27,827 nucleotides of DNA from a virus (IMGVR_UViG_3300044513_004019:1-27827); one strand, 5' to 3'. Positions 10,124-27,827 are shown, counted from the first letter of the stretch. Notes: generated by a model from the sequence alone, not told the origin. Made by a program: numbers and translations.

Positions 10124-13100
10124 ATGCCAATTAGAATAAATCTAAAGGAGCTATTTGGAAGCGACTCTCAAAACATCACAGCAGATAAGTTAAATTATAA
10201 CTTTAACAAGCTTTTGGAACTTGGAGTCGGTTTACCCGGCGAAAGGGGACTAACTGGTATACAGGGGCCTGCCGGACCTGCCGGGCCAACTGGTCCAACC
10301 GGGCCTGGGGGTAACAAATGGTTTGTCGGCTCTGGAGATCCAAATACTCAAACCTTTACTGGGCTAATCGACGGAGATTTCTTCCTAAATAGTGATAATA
10401 GCGAAATTTGGCAATATGATGAAGGAACTGATTCATGGACTTTATTAGTTGATTTAGAGGGTGTCGTTACAGATTACTTGACCTTAGCTGGAGTAACATT
10501 TGTTAGAGGAGTTGGAGACTCTAGTCCTGACGATGAAAGATATATAGTTTTTCCTAATCGAGGAAATGATACTACTGCAGTAACTACTGACGCAATCGGT
10601 GGGTCATCTGAAAATGACATTCTATTCCTAAATAACTTTAACGAGAAATTTTCAGTAGTTGATATTGCTAACTTTCCTGCAAACACCAACGATTTGTATA
10701 CTGCACTTGAAAAAATATTTGTAGACGGCACAAGTGGAGTTCCTGGAAGATATCATCTAGAACTAGGTAGCCTTTTTGCCGATACTCAAGGACCTGACAC
10801 GAATCTACTCAGCTCTCTTAAACATAATATAAAACTAAGACACGTAGTAGACGATTTAGGGGGATCATATCAGTATCCAAGCTCAAATGAATATCTGTAC
10901 ATAGGAAAATTTAGTTTGTCTAAAACCGAGGCACAACCAACCAGCGAACTTGATTTCAATTCCTTATTTGAATTTAACACCGCTAAATTTAATGCTGAAG
11001 GTGCATCTATAGTAAGAGAAGAAATCGCAGTTAAGTTTGGATCAACTGAAGCCCTTGGGGAATACCATACAGGTGCAATCGCAGACGGAATTAACATAGT
11101 AAATGGATCAAAAGTATTCGAGCTCGGTCTAGCTAGTGATTTTTCAAGTAATAATCAGGACATTGACGGAAACGATTACGCAATAATTACACAAAGTGGA
11201 TTGGATGGAATAATGTCGATTGGAGATTCCTTCTTTGAAGGAGGGAATATTAGACAGCTGGGATCTACTGGATGTACGACTCTAGGATCCCTATACGTCA
11301 GTAATTCCACTCAGAGTAATACTGCTGTAAATATATATGGCAATCTAGGAATCGCCGCACATGGAAATACCCTATATATGGTAGCTGGAAATTCTCCAGT
11401 TTTTGATCCCCTTTTTAGCTTTGGCCTTGGAGCAGGCCAGGAATTAAATTCAACAGGCTTAACTGGAACTGTAAGTTCTTGGAATACTCAGGAGGATCTT
11501 CCAGAGCTTATGCACTCCCAGAAAAACTCTGCATCTAACGGTAATACATTTTCAGGAGCTGGATTATGTGACGTTGAAGTATCCGGCAGATATCTGTATT
11601 TACTAAATAACCAAGTTTACTCTCAACTTACGGAATCATACGGATATTACCAGGCGAACCTTCAAATAATTAGACACGATTCTTCCCTTGGAAATTATTC
11701 CAGATTATATAGTTATCCTAGCTACACTAGTGGCTTAGAATTAGACGCAGCATGGAGAGTTAAGGCCCTAGGAAATCACTTGATTGTTGGATCAAATAGC
11801 CTAAGATACTTCGGCCATCCGACTCTTCCTAATGGGAACACCATCTCGACAACGCCAAGAAATACTTTACACATAGTAAATGTGTCTGATCCTAGCTCAC
11901 CATTTACAACCGATCAAAGGGGCATGTTGAATACTCATATCTTAGACATGTGTGCGATATCTAACAGATGGATTGCTGCCCTAGAATTTCAATGGACTGG
12001 AGTCACTTCCTCACTGACGAGTGCACCAACTGCGACCGGATATGTAGTAAGGTTAACTGTATATGAAATTCGCACCGATCCTTCCACTGGACAAGATATT
12101 TTCTACACCGCATACAGTCAGACCTTAGACACTTATACGACTACTATAAATGGTAGCACCTTCTATAATGAGTCAATCAGTAAGGTAGGTACTGTATGTA
12201 CTGATGGAAAATACATATACGCTTCCTATGAAGATAAAACCTGGGTTCTTGAAGAGGACGATGCTAGCGGCGCTCCACAGATATTAACAAGTATTATACA
12301 CACTAGTGGAGCAACATATCCAAAGTCTTATGACTCTAAAGTTGTTGGCAAATCCTTGTATCTGATATCAGGCGGAAACGCAGGTAGTGGAGTCTCGGAC
12401 AAACAATACACATCTACTGACACTTATCTTAAAAAGATTGATATCTCAGATGCTCTAAGTCCAGTAGTTGAATGGTCAGTTGAAACAGGGCATGCGGGTA
12501 CTAAATTTGAGATCGTAGGAAATAAGGCATATATTGCTCATCAATTCCTGTATATTACAGGATCTCCAAATCTTGGCATAGAGACTATTGAACTTGATGG
12601 AATCATAACCGATCATGCTAATATCGGAAGCTTAAAGTCAACCGACATTCATTCGACTGGAGAAATTAATGCAGCTAGAAACGTAAACGTTGGAAGATCT
12701 ATAAGTGTCGGAGAATCAGCCCTAGTTCAGGGAACTCTTGGAGTAGAAGGAATAGTAGACGTTGGTGACTCAATGAGAATTGGAAGAGGACTCAATATTG
12801 GAACTGGTGTTAACAGTAGTTTAGATATAAATAACGGCAAGATAACTCTAGGCACATCCGGCACCACATCAAGAATTGATGTACACGATAATAGCAGCAA
12901 CGACAGGATAAACCTGATCTCAACTACCTCGCAATCATATATTAATATAAACGACGGTAGTGGCAATAGAATAGTTCACGTATCTCAATCATCTGGCGGT
13001 GGCGGCCCATATGCGGTAATCGCCTTAGGAGAAGATGATCCCGCGTTTGATGGGGACGGCCATTATATATTAGCCGCAAACCCAAATCAAAAACTACTTT

Positions 13101-14473: not shown

Positions 14474-14481
14474 GTATATTA

Positions 14482-14491
14482 TTATTTATTC
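14482..14491 (-). promoter_or_regulatory. Putative late promoter GAATAAATAA
   Basis: Intergenic, 8 nt upstream of ATG 14473. Its core AATAAATA differs by one base from the T4 gp55 late promoter TATAAATA. Confidence 0.6.
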
Positions 14492-14529
14492 TACCGAAAA
14501 AACGGGTTCAGTTTACCTAAATCTTGCCA

Positions 14530-14538
14530 AATAAATAA
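14530..14538 (+). promoter_or_regulatory. Putative late promoter AATAAATAA
   Basis: Intergenic, divergent from the 14482-14491 copy, and 24 nt upstream of the neck gene ATG. Confidence 0.6.
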
Positions 14539-14562
14539 TAAAAATGCAGATGCTTATACCTG

Positions 14563-17514: not shown

Positions 17515-18114
17515 ATGATATCTAGAATAAAAAGCTTTTCAGAATATGTAGGAGACGGAATAATATCCGAGAACCTAAAGTATCATATTGATAACGATAT
17601 ATCAATCACAGAGTCTGTATTTAGACCTGGAAGCTCTGCACATATTAAACTCTTATCCGAGGCTAGATCATTATATGAAAGTAAGGAGATCAACCTATCT
17701 CAGATTGATTCCGGGCTACTTGAGGGGACTGATCTTGGTTTAACTGATACATATAATGGATTGGAGGTTCCGTTAGACCTGCCAATCGAGGATGCATCCT
17801 TGAATGAGGCTAAATATCAAGGCAGAAAGGTAGACTTAAATAAGCCTAAAAGAAATCCGAGCTCAGGAGCAAAGTATGTTGTTTACGTCAGAGATCCTAA
17901 AAAGAAAGGTAAAAACAAGGTTAAAAAGATAACCTTCGGGGATCAAAAAGGAGGTCTGACCGCAAAGGTTAGTAATCCAAAGGCCAGAAAAAGTTTCGCT
18001 GCTCGCCATAGATGTTCCGAAAAGAAAGATAAAACTAAAGCAGGATACTGGGCATGTAGAATTAATCGATACGCTCATCTCTGGGGAGGTAAAACATATC
18101 CTGGATATTGGTAA
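17515..18114 (+). CDS. Phage protein with acidic N-terminal half and basic DUF6321-like C-terminal domain; candidate head internal protein
   Basis: The C-terminal domain reads AKYQGRKVDLNKPKR...KYVVYVRDP...KKITFGD...ARKSFAARHRC...AGYWACR. The N-terminus is MISRIKSFSEY, and an internal SLNE immediately precedes the basic domain. Confidence 0.7.
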   Translation: MISRIKSFSEYVGDGIISENLKYHIDNDISITESVFRPGSSAHIKLLSEARSLYESKEINLSQIDSGLLEGTDLGLTDTYNGLEVPLDLPIEDASLNEAKYQGRKVDLNKPKRNPSSGAKYVVYVRDPKKKGKNKVKKITFGDQKGGLTAKVSNPKARKSFAARHRCSEKKDKTKAGYWACRINRYAHLWGGKTYPGYW

Positions 18115-18401
18115 TGGACTTACCGTTCGACAAAATAGAATCAGGTAAGGACTGGCAAATTAGAGAATTTAAATCAGACGTTACACTAGAAGATCTGAAG
18201 TGGCATCGAGATCTAGAGGATCGCTGGGTAAAGTCTACTCACAATTCAGACTGGATGATACAGCTAGAAAATTCTCTTCCAATATCTATACAGGAGGAGA
18301 CGTTTATTCCAGCTAAAAGTTGGCATAGACTGATCAAAGGAACTGGAGATTTAAAGGTCCTGGTTAAAATAAATAATATAGATGAAGACTCACGTTCATA
18401 A
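18114..18401 (+). CDS. Small cupin-like phage protein (~95 aa)
   Basis: WHRDLEDR and FIPAKSWHRLIKG resemble the two cupin motifs. The start is placed at ATG 18114 (TAATG overlap with the upstream stop) rather than TTG 18108. Confidence 0.65.
   Translation: MDLPFDKIESGKDWQIREFKSDVTLEDLKWHRDLEDRWVKSTHNSDWMIQLENSLPISIQEETFIPAKSWHRLIKGTGDLKVLVKINNIDEDSRS
18368..18376 (+). promoter_or_regulatory. Putative late promoter AATAAATAA
   Basis: Exact motif ending 5 nt before ATG 18382, inside the tail of the preceding gene. Confidence 0.5.
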
Positions 18402-18651
18402 TTATCAACAGTTTCTACTTCTAGAGAAAAAGAAGAGAAAGAAAATCAATCCAGGTTACTTAACTAGAGATGCTAAGGCCATGAAGGATGAGATTAAAAA
18501 GCATGCTGATAAGGAAGATGATGACGCATCTGCATATACTAGTGATCCCAAGGGAGGCTGGAAGGCTGACTATAATCAGAAGACTGGTAAGAAGTGGAAA
18601 ACTAAGAAGAGCAAACACACTAAGAAATTTGAAAAAATGTTTGGCAAATGA
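18382..18651 (+). CDS. Small Lys-rich protein, candidate head internal protein (resembles the N-terminal part of DUF5824-type proteins)
   Basis: N-terminal MKTHVHNYQQFLLLE is followed by KKKRKK. It also has DDDASAY and KTKKSKHTKKFEKMFG motifs. Confidence 0.7.
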   Translation: MKTHVHNYQQFLLLEKKKRKKINPGYLTRDAKAMKDEIKKHADKEDDDASAYTSDPKGGWKADYNQKTGKKWKTKKSKHTKKFEKMFGK

Positions 18652-18956
18652 TACTAAGCTTTGAAGAATACATATTGAATGAGGCTAGAAAAAATACTAA
18701 GAGACCTAAAGGTGCTCCTAAGTGGCATGATTCAGACGCGCCAGACGCAAATGGTAAATTCAAGGAATTAGGTATTCGTGCCCTAGCTAAATGGTTAATT
18801 AGAACCAGAGGCGGAGACATGAGAAAGATAACAGGTAGCTTAAATCAACAAGTTGTATTCAATAGAAAGAAAAACCCTAGTTACGCTAAGAAGATGGAAA
18901 AAGTAAGAGAAGAAGTCAAAAGACAGCTAGATAAAAAGAAAGGTAAAAAGAAATGA
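18648..18956 (+). CDS. Small Lys/Arg-rich protein, candidate head internal protein
   Basis: N-terminal MILSFEEYILNE, core WHDSDAPDANGKF...LAKWLIRTR...GSLNQQVVFNR, C-terminal KKKGKKK. It has ATGA overlaps at both ends. Confidence 0.72.
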   Translation: MILSFEEYILNEARKNTKRPKGAPKWHDSDAPDANGKFKELGIRALAKWLIRTRGGDMRKITGSLNQQVVFNRKKNPSYAKKMEKVREEVKRQLDKKKGKKK

Positions 18957-19252
18957 AGCTACTAGGATTTTTAGAATACATTAACGAGTCTTCGAAAACA
19001 GACACAGCTCTAAAGAATAAATCAGATAAAACTGGGATTCCTAAAGGCATCCTTAAACAAGTATATAATAGAGGACTTGCTGCTTGGAAAACTGGACACC
19101 GACCTGGAGTAAGCCAACATCAGTGGGCAATGGGTAGAGTTAACTCTTTTGCCACAAAAGGTTCAGGTACTTGGGGAGGAGCTGATAAAGATCTTGCGGC
19201 TAAGGCCAGAAAGTCAAAAAAGAAAAAGAAAGGCAAATCTAAGAAGAAATGA
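18953..19252 (+). CDS. DUF5824-like small basic protein, candidate head internal protein
   Basis: KTGIPKGILKQVYNRGLAAWKTGHRPGVSQHQWAMGRVNSF is the DUF5824-type motif. The N-terminus is MKLLGFLEYINE and the C-terminus is a poly-Lys tail. Confidence 0.78.
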   Translation: MKLLGFLEYINESSKTDTALKNKSDKTGIPKGILKQVYNRGLAAWKTGHRPGVSQHQWAMGRVNSFATKGSGTWGGADKDLAAKARKSKKKKKGKSKKK

Positions 19253-19665
19253 GATTAGAGAGGTTTGACATGCGGAGCGAACTGTTCCCGGGAGATTCAC
19301 AAATTGCTCGCTCTGAGATGGGCCAAAATTCTTATGAATACCAGATTCGCTGGGTAGATTCTCCTTTATATTATAAGCGAGAAATAGGAACAGAGTTATG
19401 GTCTTTCTGTACTGATAAAGAATTTGCTGAGGGAGTAAGGCCAGATAACTTAATTATATGGAATCCTGAAGAATATTCAAATAGAATACCTGGAGGGGTA
19501 GCAGATCAAATGGTTCCATCTCAATTTGAAGAGTCAGATCTAATAGACGGAATAAGGATAGAAATGGAACACACCAATGATCTTTATATCGCTAGAGAAA
19601 TAGCAATGGATCACCTGGCAGAAGATCCAGATTATTATAAAAAGCTTAAGAGAATACATAGATGA
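19249..19665 (+). CDS. Protein with C-terminal DUF5661-like domain
   Basis: Contains the IPGGVAD...[31 protein letters not shown] motif and has ATGA overlaps at both ends. Confidence 0.72.
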
Positions 19666-20210
19666 TTTTAAACGCTAGAAATAATGGGTTTGTATTCCTA
19701 TTTCCTCCTGATTTTTTCTCAGAGGAAATAAAGGAGAAGTATAAGAAATATTATCAGAGTTTAATACTTCCATATGATACTATTGAAGATTTTATGTCTT
19801 CTACTATTCAATCAGTAGATTTTCCAGGCTGGAACATGAATCTTGTGTCGCAAACTAGAACTAGAGGTAAGAAACAAGAATATAAAAATTCTAAACCGGT
19901 TGAAGATCTATTTACTAGAGAATTCACCCTTACTTTTAAGATGACTGATGCATTCTTAAATTATTGGATCTTCGTAGACAACGCCTTAAATTATGTCAAT
20001 TTCGATAATAGAGAACAAACTCTTTCTCCGATGAGATTGTCAATGGTAGATAATCAAGGATATCTTGTTTCTACTGTAAGATTTAATAGCCCAATTCTAA
20101 AGGGTCAAGACGGAATTAAACTATCTTATAGCTCAGTTACTCCAGAATTTAGAACGTTTAACGCTAAATTCCAATATATCGATTTTGATCTAGATATTCA
20201 ATTCAATTAA
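19662..20210 (+). CDS. T4 gp3-like tail tube terminator (tail-tube fold protein)
   Basis: IQSVDFPG...[13 protein letters not shown]...MRLSMVDNQ...VRFNSP...IKLSYS...[10 protein letters not shown] parallels gp3/gp19-family motifs (QSVPIPG...LyIlDN...F..P....eFsY). The 182 aa size fits. Confidence 0.68.
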
Positions 20211-23200
20211 GGAGTTGCGGTTTGGAACCATGCTTTCCATGAAATAGCAGAAGATTGTTGATGTAAGCTTGAATTTACCCCATTTGTTTGAAACCCAAAA
20301 AACAGTCTATCAGTACTTGATGTGATAACAGTGCTTAGAGTCCAATAGAAAGTAGCAACATTATGGAAGTAACTTGTTCCTTGCTGGAGTAAACTCACAG
20401 TTCGATCCGATCCTATAGCAACCATATTCAAGTCAGATCCATTTAAATCTTGGTGAGTGTGAATAAACGGTCTAACAATTAACGAAGTCGATGTGCTTGT
20501 ATTATACGTTGCGAGAGCCGTAACCCTCATTACCAAAACAGTTGTATCTTGAGTATTATCAATAATTGGTATACCACAATGCAATGCTTCCCATGGAAGT
20601 AAGTTAGACCCAGTTATTGTACTATTTGCTGATGCAGCCCATTCACTCGCGGCCCATCCACCGGCAGTATTATTTCCAACTAAATATTCTCCGGAAGTAT
20701 AAGGAATGGCAAATCTAGAGGCATTAAATGAGGTTTCTGCAATTGGGTTTTCATTAGCCCAGGTTGATCCGGTGCCAATTGGCCCTTGTGGTCCAGTAGA
20801 ACCTTGTGCTCCAGCAGAACCTGCGGCTCCAGTTGCTCCAGTTGCTCCAGTTGCTCCTTGTGTTCCTAGTCCCTTGGCTCCTTGTGCTCCAGTGCTTCCA
20901 GTGGCTCCAATAGAACCTTGTGCTCCAACCGCTCCAGTGGCTCCGGTTGATCCTTGAGCTCCAGCAGAACCTGCAGCTCCAGTGGCTCCGGTTGATCCTT
21001 GAGCTCCAGCAGAACCTGTAGCTCCAGTAGAACCTTGTGCTCCAACGGCTCCGGTTGATCCTTGAGCTCCAGCAGAACCTGTAGCTCCAGTGGCTCCAGT
21101 TGAACCCGTCGCTCCTGTGCTTCCAGTAGCTCCAGTAGAACCTTGTGCTCCAACAGCTCCAACAGCTCCGGTTGATCCTTGAGCTCCAGCAGAACCTGTA
21201 GCTCCAGTGGCTCCAGTTGAACCCGTCGCTCCTGTGCTTCCAGTAGCTCCTGTAGAACCTTGTGCTCCAACGGCTCCAGTGGCTCCGGTTGATCCTTGAG
21301 CTCCAACGGCTCCGGTTGCTCCGGTTGATCCTTGAGCTCCAACGGCTCCAGTGGCTCCGGTTGATCCTTGAGCTCCAACGGCTCCAGTGGCTCCGGTTGA
21401 TCCTTGAGCTCCAGCAGAACCTTGTGCTCCAACGGCTCCGGTTGCTCCGGTTGATCCTTGAGCTCCAGCAGAACCTTGTGCTCCAACGGCTCCGGTTGCT
21501 CCGGTTGATCCTTGAGCTCCAGCAGAACCTGCAGCTCCAGTGGCTCCGGTTGAACCTTGGGCTCCAACGGCTCCAGTTGCTCCAGTAGAACCCTGTGCTC
21601 CAACAGCTCCAGTAGCTCCAGTTGCTCCTAGAAGAGTATTAGTAATTTGGTGAACTCCACAGATGATAGAAGGTATAGCAGGTTCAGTAGAAGTAGCTGC
21701 AGTGTATTGCAAGCTTACATCAGTTGAATCTGAATCCCACCATATTTCAATGTAATCATTAGTATTTTGACTGGTTCCTATATAGTCAATCGTGATTAAA
21801 TCTGTATATGGCTCAGTGGAACTTTTTCTAGGTTGAAGTAGAACATTAGTTCCACTATTGGCATAATCAACGCCATTTAATCTCAACCAAAATGTAGCAT
21901 ACTGAGTTGCATTAGATACACTTGAAACTTGAAGTACTGCAGTAAACTTATACGTTCCTACAACCGGTAATGTTACTTCAGTTCCGTTTTGAACGGAAAT
22001 TCCATTCGCTCCAAATGAAGATCCTATATCCACAACTTGAGCCGTATTTACGCTTGATATAGGTTGATCTGTAGTATCATAAAAAGATCCCCACTGTGCA
22101 ACAACTCCTCCAGGTCCCTGTGGTCCTACCGGTCCTGTCGCACCTTGAGCTCCGGCCCCAGCGGGTCCAGTCGCTCCTTGAGCTCCAGCAGAACCTGCGG
22201 CCCCAGTTGCTCCAGTCGATCCTTGGGCTCCAGCAGAACCTGCGGCTCCAGTTGCTCCAGTCGATCCTTGGGCTCCAGCAGAACCTGCGGCCCCAGTTGC
22301 TCCAGTCGATCCTTGGGCTCCAGCAGAACCTGCGGCTCCAGTTGCTCCAGTCGATCCTTGGGCTCCAGCAGAACCTGCGGCTCCAGTTGCTCCTTGGGCT
22401 CCAGTTGCTCCGGCTCCTGTACTAGGCGAGTTTTGCCAGATACCAAGACTAGAGTTATACATCAATATATCCTGATCAGCTAATGGAGAACTTAAGTAAA
22501 CATCTGCTAGTTCCTCTAGCAATAAATCGATATCTATATTAATTTGCTGATTAGGAGACTCGGTTAACGTAAACTTATCTAAAAAGTTTAGAGTAATTAT
22601 ATCAGCGTCCCCTATTTGAACTCCAGCTGATAAGACATTGTTCAAAGTTCCAGTGCCCCCAGGTAGGGAAGCATTAACCGTCACGTTAACCCTAGAGTTA
22701 ACACTATCATCTACAATAGTTAAACTAACATTTGATCCCTCAATAAAATTAATAGTATCTCTGGACCCTACCAGGCTTCCACCTTTTTCTATGTTAACCA
22801 CAGAAACGGCATTTGCCTCTAATGTTCCTGATCCATCAATATATGTCCATGTGACGGTGGAAGTATCTTGAACTAGAGCAGCGACTCTGTCGTCTACTCG
22901 CTCGTCAGTGTAATATAAGTTTGTTGACCCCTCGGTTAAATCATCAGTATCAAATGGCGCCAGGGTGATAGTCGGAGTTAGCCTATTGGCTATATCATTA
23001 TATAGCCAAGTGATTCCTGTACCATTCTGGATCATCCCTGCGACCGTGTCCTGAGCTCTCTCGTCAGTGTAATATAGGTTTGTAGAACCTTCGCTTAAAT
23101 CATCAGTATCAAACGGGGCTAATGTGACTGTAGGAGTTAATGTACCTGCAGAAGCTCCATTATCAGAGTAAGTCCACGATATACCCGTACCGTTCTGAAT

Positions 23201-23611
23201 TAAGCTAAGAGATACTCGATCGTCAACTCTTTCACCTGTAAAATATAAACGAGATCCTTCTGCTAAATCTGATGTGCTAAAAGGAGAAAGGGTTACGTTT
23301 CCAGTAAACGTATTTGAAGGGTCATTGTATGTCCAATTTAAACCTGTACCGTCCTGGATCATCGTAGAAATTGTGTCCTGGGCGCGCTCATCAGTATAAT
23401 AAAGATTAGACCCTTCTGAAATATCGTCTGTTGTTAAAGAAAGTGATCCAACTCCCTGCCAAGTAACATTACCAGCGCCATCAGTAGTTAAAACCTGGCC
23501 GCTAGTACCGTCTGTTGTTGGCAGAGTAAACTGTTCATTTACAGTGATTGTTTTAGCATCTAAAGATCCTAATATGTATACATTCTGATATAATTGAGAA
23601 GTTTTCTTCAT
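20207..23611 (-). CDS. Collagen-like fibre protein (~1134 aa): N-terminal fibre repeats, two Gly-X-Y blocks separated by a C1q/BclA-CTD-like domain, C-terminal globular domain
   Basis: Begins with the [24 protein letters not shown] fibre motif and four [17 protein letters not shown] repeats, followed by Gly-X-Y blocks. ATG 23611 is preferred to TTG 23614, and two GAATAAATAA motifs lie upstream. Confidence 0.88.
20777..21628 (-). repeat. Collagen Gly-X-Y block (~94 triplets; [15 protein letters not shown])
   Basis: 9-nt periodicity, with a near-identical 117-nt duplication around 21048-21251 and one G-X-G interruption (GAKGLGTQ). Confidence 0.95.
22109..22417 (-). repeat. Collagen Gly-X-Y block built on a 45-nt tandem repeat ([15 protein letters not shown])
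   Basis: About 4-5 near-perfect copies of ccagcagaacctgcggc(t/c)ccagttgctccagtcgatccttgggct. Confidence 0.95.
22810..23434 (-). repeat. Four ~53-aa protein repeats ([17 protein letters not shown]...GTGIxWxY...TLxPF)
   Basis: Visible directly in the translation, aa ~61-270. Confidence 0.9.
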
Positions 23612-23633
23612 CAAGTCCTAGTATTTTATATGA

Positions 23634-23643
23634 TTATTTATTC
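23634..23643 (-). promoter_or_regulatory. Putative late promoter GAATAAATAA (proximal)
   Basis: Intergenic, 22 nt upstream of ATG 23611. Identical 10-mer to 14482-14491. Confidence 0.6.
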
Positions 23644-23668
23644 TGAAGAGCTAACTAATCATCTATTA

Positions 23669-23678
23669 TTATTTATTC
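23669..23678 (-). promoter_or_regulatory. Putative late promoter GAATAAATAA (distal tandem copy)
   Basis: Second identical 10-mer, offset 35 nt upstream of the first. Confidence 0.55.
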
Positions 23679-23694
23679 GATCAAACTTGAATTA

Positions 23695-23725
23695 TTGAAA
23701 CCTCGGTCAATATAGGTGATATAAT
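23695..23725 (+). promoter_or_regulatory. Sigma70-like (early/middle) promoter TTGAAA-N19-TATAAT with extended -10 TG
   Basis: TTGAAA lies at 23695-23700 and TGaTATAAT at 23717-23725, with a second TATAAT at 23725-23730. It ends 18 nt upstream of ATG 23744. The spacer is longer than the canonical 17 nt. Confidence 0.5.
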
Positions 23726-23743
23726 ATAATCAAAGAACTTAGT

Positions 23744-24985
23744 ATGAAGTTAAGCATAATTACACCTTCCCATAAAGCAGATTATCTAAAGGAATTATAT
23801 GATTCAATTGTTGATCAGACTTACGAAAATTGGGAGTGGGTATTATACATAAATGGAGGCCTTAAAAAGAAGGATTTACCCTCTGAAATAATTGAAAATC
23901 CAAAAGTAAGAATTATATCATACGATGGACCTAATACTAATGTAGGATACATAAAACATCATGCATTTCTTCTTGGACAAGGCGATGCTTTGTTAGAAGT
24001 AGATCACGATGACATAATAACTCCAGACTGTCTAGAAGAAGTAGCAAAGGCATTCAAAGATAATCCAGATGTTGGGTTTGTGTTTAGTGATAACGCTAAA
24101 ATAGACGACGATTTTATACCCTATAACCCAGAACATGGCTGGATCTATGAGCCATTTGAATGGAAGGGAAAGGAACTTATCTCCATGAACACATTTGAAG
24201 CTGATGCAGCTTCGGTTTCTTTGATATTCTATGCACCTGATCACATCAGAGCATGGAGAAAATCAGTTTACGTTGAAATTGGTGGACATAATGTAGATCT
24301 TAGTATTTTGGATGACCAAGAACTGATGATTAGGACCTACATGGTCACTAAGTTCAAAAAGATACCAAAGACTCTGTACTTATATCGAATTCACGGAGAT
24401 AATACTTGGATTGAAAGAAACCAGGCAATTCAAGATGGAACATTTGCAATGTTTAGAGAATGGCAACAGAGGTTAGCTGAAAGAGATGCAGATCTAAGAG
24501 GTTTAAGAAAGATAGACATCGGAGGCGGCATTTTAGGTCGAGAAGGATATGAGACTGTTGATATTCGAAATGGAATGATCCAGGCAGACCTGAATGAACC
24601 CTGGCCATTCAAGGACGGCGAAGTTGGAGTGATAAATGCATCACACATCATAAGTCATTTAAAGGATAAACAATTTACAATGTCAGAAATTCATCGAGTC
24701 CTTGCAGACGGAGGTTGGGTATTCATAGAAGTTCCGTCAACAGATGGTCGAGGAGCCTTTCAAGATCCTACCCATGTCACTTATTGGAATGAGAATAGTT
24801 TCTTGTATTATACTAGATCTGCTCAAGCTAGATTTATTTACAATGATTCAATAAAATTCCAAGATCGATTACTAGAAACAGGCTTCTTCGATCCTTGGAT
24901 GGAAGAGATGAATATTCCCTGTACTAGAGCCTGGTTAAGGGCAATCAAAAGCGATGCCAGAATCCCAGGACAAGTTCAGATTTAA
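23744..24985 (+). CDS. Family 2 glycosyltransferase fused to a class I SAM-dependent methyltransferase-like domain
   Basis: The N-terminal LSIITPSH...[17 protein letters not shown]...EVDHDD (DxD)...DDQELMIR indicates a GT-A/GT2 fold. The C-terminal IDIGGG...DLNEPWPF...ASHIISHL...[17 protein letters not shown]...DPTH is Methyltransf_11-like. Confidence 0.9.
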
Positions 24986-27825
24986 CCAATTTTGAGAATC
25001 CAAGTAACTTGAGCCGTACCGAAAGATCCTCCGTTTCCTTTAAATCCAACTACTATAAAATCCTCACATTCATCTAAGTCTACTCCAGTAGTTGCAGCAA
25101 GTGTAAAGCACGCGGTCCCGGTACCCGTGAGAACCGTGTTTGATTGGCCAATTGAAGTTAAAGTAACTGCTGAACTTCCAGTACCTATATCACTACAGCT
25201 TCCCCTCCACAGTCCAATATCGACACTAGCACTTCTTGATCCAACAGCAGAAGAATCGTGATAATTACCACATAATGTCAGCTTTGTTGCACCTGTGATG
25301 TTAATTGGTAAGTAAATAGCGCATGCAAATTCGTGAGGGCTTGATAAGTCTGTTATGCTGGAACCTTTACTAATATTCCAATCGTTTCCTCCCCATCCAT
25401 ATGGGTCTTGTCCAATATACCAAGTTCCATCTGACATAAATGTATTACTGCTAGACGCAACAGGAACAACCGAAGATCCTCCTCCTCCAGAAGCTCCCTG
25501 TGCTCCAGTCGCTCCTTGTGCTCCATTAGTTCCGTTAGTTCCTGCAGCTCCTTGAGCTCCATTAGTTCCATTTGATCCAGCAGCTCCCTGTGCTCCGGTA
25601 GCTCCTTTAGCTCCTTGTGCTCCATTAGTTCCGTTAGTTCCAGCAGCTCCTTGAGCTCCAGTTCCTCCTTTAGCACCTTGGGCTCCATTAGTTCCGTTAG
25701 TTCCAGCAGCTCCTTGAGCTCCAGTTCCTCCTTTGGCTCCTTGAGCTCCTGTAGCACCTTGGGCTCCATTGGATCCAGCATCTCCTTGAGCTCCAGTTGC
25801 ACCTTGGGCTCCATTGGATCCAGCATCTCCTTGAGCTCCAGTTCCTCCTTTGGCTCCTTGAGCTCCATTGGATCCAGCATCTCCTTGAGCTCCAGTTCCT
25901 CCTTTGGCTCCTTGAGCTCCTGTAGCACCTTGGGCTCCATTTGATCCAGCATCTCCTTGAGCTCCAGTTCCTCCTTTGGCTCCTTGAGCTCCATTTGATC
26001 CAGCAGCTCCTTGTGCCCCAGTTCCTCCTTTGGCTCCTTGGGCTCCATTTGATCCAGCAGCTCCTTGAGCTCCATTTGATCCGGCGGCTCCTTGTGCCCC
26101 GGTAGCTCCTTGGGCTCCATTTGATCCTGCAGCTCCTTGGGCTCCGGTAGCTCCCTGTATTCCCTGTTCTAACTCAAAGTTAAATACGGCTGCGTTAGCT
26201 GTACCTGAATTAGTCACAGTAGGAGGAGTACCTGCTGGTACTGGAACGACTGTTCCGATTGATATAGTGGCTGAGTTGCCTTGAGCTCCATTTCCTCCTT
26301 TAGCTCCTTGAGCTCCATTAGATCCTGTAGCTCCTTGGGCTCCATTAGATCCTGCAGCTCCTTGAGAACCAGTTGCTCCTTTAGCTCCTTGTGCTCCTGT
26401 TGCACCTTGGGCTCCATTAGATCCTGCAGATCCTTGAGAACCTGTAGCTCCTTTGGCTCCTTGTGCTCCAGTTGCTCCCTGAGCTCCATTAGATCCTGCA
26501 GCTCCTTGTGCTCCTTGATCTCCCTGGGCTCCAGTTGCTCCCTTGGCTCCTTGTGCTCCTTGATCTCCCTGGGCTCCAGTTGCTCCTTTGGCTCCCTGTG
26601 CTCCAGTGTTTCCTTGTGCTCCATTAGATCCTGCAGCACCTTGAGAACCTGTAGCTCCCTTGGCTCCTTGAGCTCCAGTTGCTCCCTGAGCTCCTTGTAT
26701 TCCTTGCTCTAACTCAAAGTCAAATACTGCTGCGTTAGCAGTACCTGAGTTAGTCACAGTAGGAGGAGTACCTGCGGGTACTGGAAGTACTGTTCCGACA
26801 TTTATAGTAGCTGCATTTCCTTGAGAACCGGTAGCTCCTTTGGCTCCTTGTGCTCCTGTTGCTCCCTGTGCTCCATTAGATCCTGCAGCTCCTTGAGAAC
26901 CGGTAGCTCCTTTGGCTCCTTGTGCTCCTGTTGCTCCCTGTGCTCCATTAGATCCTGCAGCTCCTTGAGAACCGGTAGCTCCTTTAGCTCCTTGTGCTCC
27001 TTGTATTCCCTGCTCTAACTCAAAGTCAAATACTGCTGCGTTAGCCGTACCTGAGTTAGTCACAGTAGGAGGAGTACCTGCGGGTACTGGCAGTACTGTT
27101 CCGACATTTATAGTAGCTGAGTTACCTTGAGCTCCTGTATTTCCTTGAGAACCCGTTGCTCCCTGAGAACCTGTATTTCCTTGAGAACCTGTTGCACCTT
27201 TAGCTCCCTGAGCTCCAGTGTCTCCTTGGGCTCCAGTTGCTCCCTTGGCTCCCTGAGCTCCAGTGTCTCCTTGTGCTCCAGTTGCTCCCTTGGCTCCTTG
27301 GGCTCCAGTTGCTCCTTGATCTCCTTGTGCTCCAGTTGCTCCCTTGGCTCCCTGGGCTCCAGTTGCTCCTTGAGCTCCTTGATCTCCCTGGGCTCCAGTG
27401 TCTCCCTGAGCTCCAGTGTCTCCTTGTGCTCCTTGATCTCCCTGGGCTCCAGTTGCTCCTTTGGCTCCTTGAGCTCCTTGATCTCCCTGGGCTCCAGTTG
27501 CTCCTTTGGCTCCCTGTGCTCCAGTTGCTCCTTGAGCTCCAGTTGCTCCTTGAGCTCCGGTTAGACTCAAATTACTTCTAGTTTTTATAGTACCGCTAGA
27601 TTCTAAAACTAAGATGTCGTTTGCAACACCGCCCGATTGTATATTAGGTGCGATTATATCAGATTGGAATCTTACATCGTCTCCTATCTTAGATATAACC
27701 TTAGTCATATCATTTGCAGTATATCCAGAGTCTACTGATGATTGTTCACTACTTACGTTGTTATTTATGGATACAGCTGATTTTAGAGAACTGCTTCTTG
27801 GTACTACATCAATATCACAAGTTAC
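24982..27825 (-). CDS. Collagen-like fibre protein, probably 5'-truncated by the window (>=947 aa)
   Basis: The frame stays open upstream of ATG 27708 to the window edge ([43 protein letters not shown]). It has about 190 Gly-X-Y triplets, three globular spacers and a Cys-containing C-terminal domain. Confidence 0.88.
25489..27558 (-). repeat. Long collagen Gly-X-Y region ([18 protein letters not shown]) in four blocks
   Basis: 9-nt periodicity, including an exact 72-nt tandem repeat at ~26819-26985. Confidence 0.95.
26161..27117 (-). repeat. Three copies of a 37-aa spacer [37 protein letters not shown] (27007-27117, 26701-26811, 26161-26271)
   Basis: Near-identical at the protein and DNA level, with offsets of 306 and 540 nt. 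Confidence 0.93.
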
Positions 27826-27827
27826 AT

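Follow-up and report, generated by a model that had tools for sequence, protein, structure and literature searches.

The closest described parallel to a phage glycosyltransferase gene lying among collagen genes is the SgtA/BclA3 pair of Clostridioides difficile, in which a soluble GT-A enzyme is encoded beside a collagen-like fibre that is glycosylated in its collagen region; as described in PMC7157674, SgtA carries four TPRs and targets Thr/Ser of GPT repeats. Among viruses, the chlorovirus PBCV-1 protein A064R is a glycosyltransferase-methyltransferase fusion that builds and methylates the glycan of a virion glycoprotein, its three domains extending an Asn-linked glycan on the capsid protein, and the same source presents mimivirus L230, the counterpart here of animal LH3, as a bifunctional viral enzyme that hydroxylates and then glucosylates Lys of viral collagen (PMC9614988). 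Mycobacteriophages also encode glycosyltransferases that glycosylate virion proteins (Freeman et al. 2023, cited in PMC12619734), although what is modified there is the C-terminus of capsid and tail-tube proteins rather than a collagen fibre. When glycosyltransferase genes lie beside phage fibre genes, their products are usually read as modifiers of DNA or host LPS, and such enzymes appear as O-chain or DNA modifiers in the published accounts that bear on them (PMC7029224, PMC12619734, PMC12801897, PMC10202952). The phage gene analysed here resembles sgtA in adjoining collagen genes and A064R in joining a glycosyltransferase to a methyltransferase. However, it encodes a methyltransferase in place of the TPRs, its product differs from the three-domain A064R and, unlike L230, has no oxygenase and has partners whose Y-position Lys is mostly low. 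Furthermore, at the level of the family, the partners are not dominated by G-X-Thr: the enzyme accompanies G-X-Gln collagens and, unlike SgtA, was not found at the Thr-only collagens sampled.

The window, i.e. the whole stretch of DNA that was analysed, comprises 27,827 bases and covers structural genes of a T4-like jumbo phage, with a gp15-like tail sheath stabiliser, an S74-chaperone fibre and a weak head-closure match. A 1198-aa protein encoded in it gives 25-32% matches to proteins of Sphingomonas phage PAU, Tenacibaculum phages pT24/PTm1, Flavobacterium phage MaF61, Chryseobacterium phage MA9V and the Lak megaphages, and, because of this resemblance, the host is likely to belong to the Bacteroidota. 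The runs that contained at least half of the sampled window words were estuary and salt-marsh metagenomes. Near its N-terminus, the S74 fibre carries a conserved mini-collagen of 10 triplets (window 10229-10318) that is present in six relatives too. Between gp15 and the variable slot lies a series of small genes (17515-19665), several of them Lys-rich (DUF5824, DUF5661, phrog_7595), whose number and identity differ between relatives. Based on a comparison of 12 related-phage loci, the slot that follows gene 19662 is hypervariable, and neither the long collagen nor the enzyme was found in four related phage contigs that are 19-54% complete. In two of the relatives (L086:10599-14215 and L088:10595-14198), the slot contains, by eye, plus-strand kinase-, nucleotidyltransferase-, glycosyltransferase- and sulfotransferase-like genes, which adjoin minus-strand fibre genes without collagen. 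The features of the window that concern the collagen locus are as follows.

20207..23611, minus strand: collagen-like fibre A, 1134 aa from its ATG, its 129 G-X-Y triplets divided among four runs; phage-fibre shaft repeats at the N-terminus and a tip of 186 aa at the C-terminus, with collagen runs and a middle domain of 157 aa
22100..22411, minus strand: first G-X-Y region of collagen A, 34 triplets
20768..21628, minus strand: second G-X-Y region of collagen A, 95 triplets
23744..24985, plus strand: soluble GT2 (GT-A) and class I SAM-methyltransferase fusion, 413 aa, model pLDDT 95
23744..24493, plus strand: GT2 domain, aa 1-250, the part that tracks collagen
24506..24982, plus strand: methyltransferase domain, aa 255-413, with DIGGG motif I at 258-262 and DPTH
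24982..27825, minus strand: collagen-like fibre B, 908 aa from an ATG at 27708, with 196 triplets in four runs
24985..25470, minus strand: Cys-containing 162-aa C-terminal domain of collagen B, with 25 relatives and no Pfam family
14481-14539, 18369-18377 and 23633-23676: the five copies of the ATAAATAAT motif in the window
23633..23676, minus strand: two of these copies, lying before collagen A; putative late-promoter element

The enzyme gene is antisense to both fibre genes, divergent from collagen A across a gap of 132 nt and convergent with collagen B, which it overlaps by 4 nt; because its strand is opposite to that of both, the locus is not an operon. The first-pass annotation had described it as the sole gene between two collagen genes, and this layout is confirmed: no additional credible gene was found between the enzyme and either collagen, and both junctions are spanned in independent assemblies (the X2 piece, 23313-25225; the X7 piece, 22382-25361; and locus L750). 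The five matches to ATAAATAAT compare with 1.05 expected, and five were reached in 0 of 100 shuffles. Four of the five are intergenic, one lies immediately upstream of the gene at 18382, and the motif is kept 5' of structural genes in related phages, making it a candidate late-promoter element of the PAU/Lak-like lineage. A scan of the window found none on the enzyme's strand, leaving the enzyme gene without the upstream motif of the fibre type.

Both fibre proteins show long unbroken Gly-X-Y runs with what are predicted to be flanking globular domains, the pattern of prokaryotic collagen-like proteins; the longest runs, at 85 and 77 triplets, exceed the shuffle maxima of 6 and 10 (500 shuffles). 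The first-pass annotation had called the Y positions Thr-rich, which holds for collagen A (Thr 45%; Gln 28/129, or 22%) but not for collagen B, where Gln reaches 41%, Thr 23% and Lys 11%; pooled, the two have 33.5% Gln and 31.7% Thr at Y, and proline is confined to X positions, where it reaches 1.8%. Homologues of the N-terminal part of collagen A are phage fibre proteins, with collagen in just two of the best 120, and its shaft recurs without collagen in the variable slot of related phages. The C-terminal tip of fibre A (window 20207-20770) differs between near-identical strains (compared with L750:3-2936 and L083:5331-5672), which suggests that tips are swapped. Collagen B has three 37-aa interruptions in addition to its C-terminal tip. 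The interruption (ATI...ELEQG), whose three copies break the protein at about window 26160-27120, possibly forms small folded knuckle domains. Relatives of the 162-aa tip domain are mostly C-terminal in other proteins, several of them phage-fibre-like. Since the frame stays open to the contig end, the start of collagen B is uncertain, its first ATG being at 27708, and the gene is probably cut by that end.

The enzyme matches PF00535 at 45.4 bits and PF08241 at 31.7 bits (cut-off 21.2 for the latter), both above cut-off, and no hydrophobic stretch was found in it. The predicted fold of the first domain is canonical GT2/GT-A. E85-x-D87-H-D89-D90, P165-x-H167-x-R169, D190-D191 and Y212 are kept in 116-117 of 117 representatives, with H88 in 111, and in a second comparison, D87-H-D89-D90 and D190-D191, aligned to the motifs of K4CP, are kept in 86-87 of 87 homologues. 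By analogy with GT2 enzymes, we take these to be the metal-binding DxD motif and the acidic base. Judged by PF00535, the modelled GT-A fold and the intact motifs, the window enzyme is classed as a GT2/GT-A glycosyltransferase. Neither Pfam nor the structure model reveals a TPR, and the model contains GT-A and class I methyltransferase domains only, without a 2OG-Fe(II) hydroxylase domain. Comparisons of sequence and fold with the PDB place it closest to glycan or teichoic-acid transferases, among them the GT2 enzymes SpsA, TarS/TarP, RmlT, WrtF and the C-terminal domain of the chondroitin polymerase K4CP, at about 20% identity and none with a fused methyltransferase; A064R is not among the matches listed. 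Where the acceptor is known, these enzymes act on sugar or polyol hydroxyls.

The methyltransferase domain has Ser304 at a position of the H-x-x-E-H motif that is Glu in 82 of 87 homologues, a substitution common to the window enzyme and strain L750. The domain shows 16 synonymous and three non-synonymous changes, and both domains of the enzyme are, from such sequence comparisons, under purifying selection. In a cyanophage-like clade (L756, L757, L758 and L766) the motif is degenerate, reading SH-x-x-S-Y-I against SH-x-x-E-H-L, a second loss of the Glu. Pro occupies the conserved Glu position in the Streptomyces homologues L403, L404 and L411; these three and L414 have no collagen in the flanks analysed.

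The first-pass annotation had proposed co-localisation with collagen genes as a check, and the association held in phages, and in bacteria it was stronger still. Among viral contigs, 40 of 80 enzyme loci (the best 80 of 102 confirmed, on redundant and often truncated contigs) contain a collagen frame. Viral cassettes with both usually include GT2(-TPR), DUF6445, 2OG-Fe(II) oxygenases and methyltransferases, and sometimes UDP-galactopyranose mutase. In GTDB, the best 80 of 565 confirmed loci were taken; 77 passed a 150-bit filter, and 61 of those have collagen, and the 80 collapse to 35 clusters at 70% identity, of which 29 have collagen, 26 of them within 1.5 kb. The homologues span Actinomycetota, Planctomycetota, Bacteroidota, Proteobacteria, Myxococcota and one archaeal bin. 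No globular domain is common to the partner collagens in the 23 GTDB loci with long collagen frames that were inspected by eye, which include BclA-like, Kelch-like, phage-tail and signal-peptide forms. Because oxygenase and GT2-TPR partners are rare across the 80 GTDB loci (6, 1, 2 and 3 loci), collagen plus glycosyltransferase is the core pairing. Additionally, of 250 actinobacterial genomes drawn at random, four have the family, each with an adjacent collagen (4/4). When all enzyme loci are pooled, 264 loci give 120 clusters at 85%; after Gly-rich frames were filtered out and one locus kept per cluster, 83 have collagen of at least 20 triplets, in GT-only and GT-MT clades alike, and the remaining 37, many on short contigs, have none within the flanking DNA analysed.

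Some phage copies have other neighbours: in five loci (L013, L058, L067, L068 and L812) the enzyme adjoins ribonucleotide reductase or thymidylate synthase genes. Together with the existence of DNA-modifying phage glycosyltransferases (cited in PMC12619734), such neighbours would suit an enzyme that hypermodifies phage DNA by glycosylating and then methylating a hydroxymethyl base. Yet no TET/JBP or base hydroxymethylase Pfam match occurs in the window, which is a genome fragment, or in 100 hand-picked neighbours (of 1434 ORFs), a phage with nucleotide-gene neighbours (G002) still has a Gln-rich collagen, and the bacterial homologues are accompanied by collagen genes rather than by those of DNA metabolism; we rate a role on DNA as very unlikely.

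Across the 83 enzyme-linked sets, Gln at Y ranges from 0.19 to 0.97 (median 0.50) and Thr from 0 to 0.63 (median 0.21), with Gln exceeding Thr in 73. The lowest Gln values are 0.19 (L831), 0.20 (L754) and 0.20 (L421); L761, outside the 83, has 0.05 on 20 triplets. The methyltransferase domain is missing in 16 of the 83, whose median Y-Gln is also 0.50, and the glycosyltransferase domain is on this account the part that tracks collagen. The residues at X are very varied (GFQ, GHQ, GYQ, GPQ, GAQ), and, in 67 hand-picked linked sets, Y-Lys is below 5% in 64 and no universal Ser/Thr-plus-Gln motif was found. Based on these compositions, the constant feature of enzyme-linked collagens is Gln at Y, not Thr.

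The same bias appears when collagens instead of enzymes serve as the starting point. Four pattern scans of viral contigs returned at least 290 loci (each at least 4 kb, with collagen), in 235 clusters among the matches listed. Among these, the glycosyltransferase domain accompanies 10/59 clusters anchored on GAQGAT, 4/59 on (GXQ)6, 0/59 on (G[APS]T)5 and 0/62 on GPKGD, the last being a control that differs in lineage and probably habitat, so that the Thr-anchored set is the fairer one. By composition, again among the matches listed, 14/137 clusters with Y-Gln of at least 0.25 have the domain against 0/98 below (Fisher p=4.5e-4, with lineage and habitat only partly controlled), and it is found in 0/90 of those with Y-Thr of at least 0.4.

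These counts bear on the first-pass model, in which, as in BclA, the enzyme would O-glycosylate Thr at Y of G-X-T and cap the glycan with methyl, Gln being incidental. That model draws on the high Y-Thr of collagen A, on the presence of some Ser/Thr in all 67 hand-picked sets (minimum 0.05 per triplet) and on the precedent of SgtA, which is described as placing O-GlcNAc on Thr of an adjacently encoded GPT collagen (PMC7157674). Against it, besides the Thr-anchored and Thr-rich classes, which are empty among the matches listed, stand Y-Thr below 0.10 in 16 of the 83 linked sets, Y-Thr of zero in five (L388, L389, L477, L723 and L757), and an enzyme that has no TPRs and shows no similarity to the single phage protein of the GT2-TPR family with which it was compared. 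BclA-like Thr O-glycosylation is not supported and is unlikely. Where cassettes do include GT2-TPR, the collagens are more Thr-rich (median Y-Thr 0.31 vs 0.17 without; n=12 and 71, p=0.044), a hint that this family and SgtA-like enzymes divide the work between them.

Gln-rich collagens are also found where the enzyme has no collagen in its analysed flanks. In a prospective search of whole records of this kind, eight from viruses and two from bacteria, distant collagens turned up in five of the eight virus records (S-CRM01, G001, G002, G006 and G007) with Y-Gln of 0.60-0.93 and Y-Thr of 0-0.17, figures that cover eight frames, three others being left out and one short frame lying under threshold. 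In cultured phage S-CRM01, gp020 and gp023, both collagen tail fibres by annotation, lie about 50 kb from the enzyme, gp090. No collagen above cut-off occurs in the phage fragments G003-G005 (19-31% complete), and no Gln-rich collagen in the bacteria G008 and G009, where hits were Thr-rich, mixed or off-frame only. In the 735-kb phage LR756501, a GT-only member occurs with a single GPQ/GPT segment some 330 kb from it, and the collagen sampled from this phage is mostly Gln-free GTS/GSS. The GT-only member (78645-79403) lies directly behind an apparent major capsid gene, and very long Gly-Thr-Ser/Gly-Ser-Ser collagens occupy about 394000-422000.

The distant collagens weigh on a further alternative, that the enzyme modifies host LPS or capsule and lies near fibres because both fill a variable island. 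Glycosyltransferases in the host-recognition cluster of pelagimyophages are read as O-chain modifiers (PMC7029224), the hypervariable slot holds other modifying enzymes without collagen in L086, L088 and L090 (by eye), and the enzyme is structurally nearest to polysaccharide and teichoic-acid glycosyltransferases. A host-surface role nevertheless leaves unexplained both the adjacency to collagen in bacterial chromosomes of many phyla and the Gln bias of S-CRM01 collagens some 50 kb away, and is improbable.

Most Gln-rich collagens have no enzyme nearby: 123 of the 137 viral clusters among the matches listed, and 20 of 23 genomes with the (GXQ)4 pattern, in which no enzyme match reaches E <= 1e-40 and many of the pattern matches are off-frame or GGQ repeats. 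This majority, along with the reported commonness of Gln in Firmicutes collagens (PMC8968730), would fit a gene and a GAQ-type repeat that travel together without any chemistry between them, Y-Gln simply mirroring the helix propensity of uncharged collagens. However, the link holds across about 35% identity, in both orientations, between unlinked genes and with varied X residues, and the enzyme is conserved in both domains by purifying selection; mere co-travel is extremely unlikely.

The reading preferred here, to which we assign a probability of roughly 0.68, is that the soluble GT2 enzyme glycosylates the Gly-X-Gln-rich regions of neighbouring fibres and that the sugar so attached is then, in all likelihood, methylated by the methyltransferase domain. 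The enzyme would act in the infected cytoplasm with nucleotide sugars and SAM of the host; host donors are proposed because nucleotide-sugar genes, for which the first-pass annotation had suggested looking nearby, are absent from the window. Collagen chains would be glycosylated before or during trimer assembly, with Y-position Gln read by the enzyme as a specificity element, and the methyltransferase domain may, by analogy with A064R, methylate the sugar. The resulting coat could stabilise or shield helices that are nearly free of proline and sparsely charged, serving helix stability, protection from proteases or the host, or adhesion. The earlier idea that the phage decorates its own collagen fibres is supported by the co-occurrence with collagens, but its BclA-like targeting of Y-position Thr is not, and a methyl cap is plausible yet optional, given that family members without the methyltransferase adjoin collagens of the same kind.

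Within the glycosylation model, we give about 40% to Ser/Thr in the vicinity as the acceptor, about 35% to the Gln amide and about 25% to a sugar that another enzyme has primed. The Gln amide is the simplest reading for the GFQ/GHQ/GNQ collagens, because these have 5-8% Ser/Thr, and total Ser+Thr is below 0.10 per triplet in four of the 83 sets; it is disfavoured because the closest structures use hydroxyls. We know of no GT2 that glycosylates a Gln amide. Glycosylation of Gln is reported, as a rarity, for antibodies and mycoplasmas (PMC13738210, PMC4657876). More specifically, the family might be a dedicated Gln N-glycosyltransferase acting on the side-chain amide of Y-Gln, with an optional fused methyltransferase that caps the sugar, a tentative proposal that we hold possible though doubtful. 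Equally tentatively, such glycosylation could take the place of hydroxyproline/hydroxylysine chemistry in phage and bacterial collagens.

The pairing of enzyme and collagen is real and widespread, and it is apparently undescribed; no description of this GT2(-MT) family or of its link to Gln-collagen was found in the openly readable literature. If Gln is the acceptor, the family would provide a dedicated enzyme for a rarely reported linkage as well as a tool for the glyco-engineering of recombinant collagens, and, as cultured phage S-CRM01 has both the enzyme and Gln-rich collagens, the question is directly testable. Gly-X-Gln collagen is a putative sequence-level substrate signature common to jumbo phages and cyanophages as well as to many bacterial phyla, and it points to glycosylation of virion fibres and to a general prokaryotic maturation route for proline-poor collagen.
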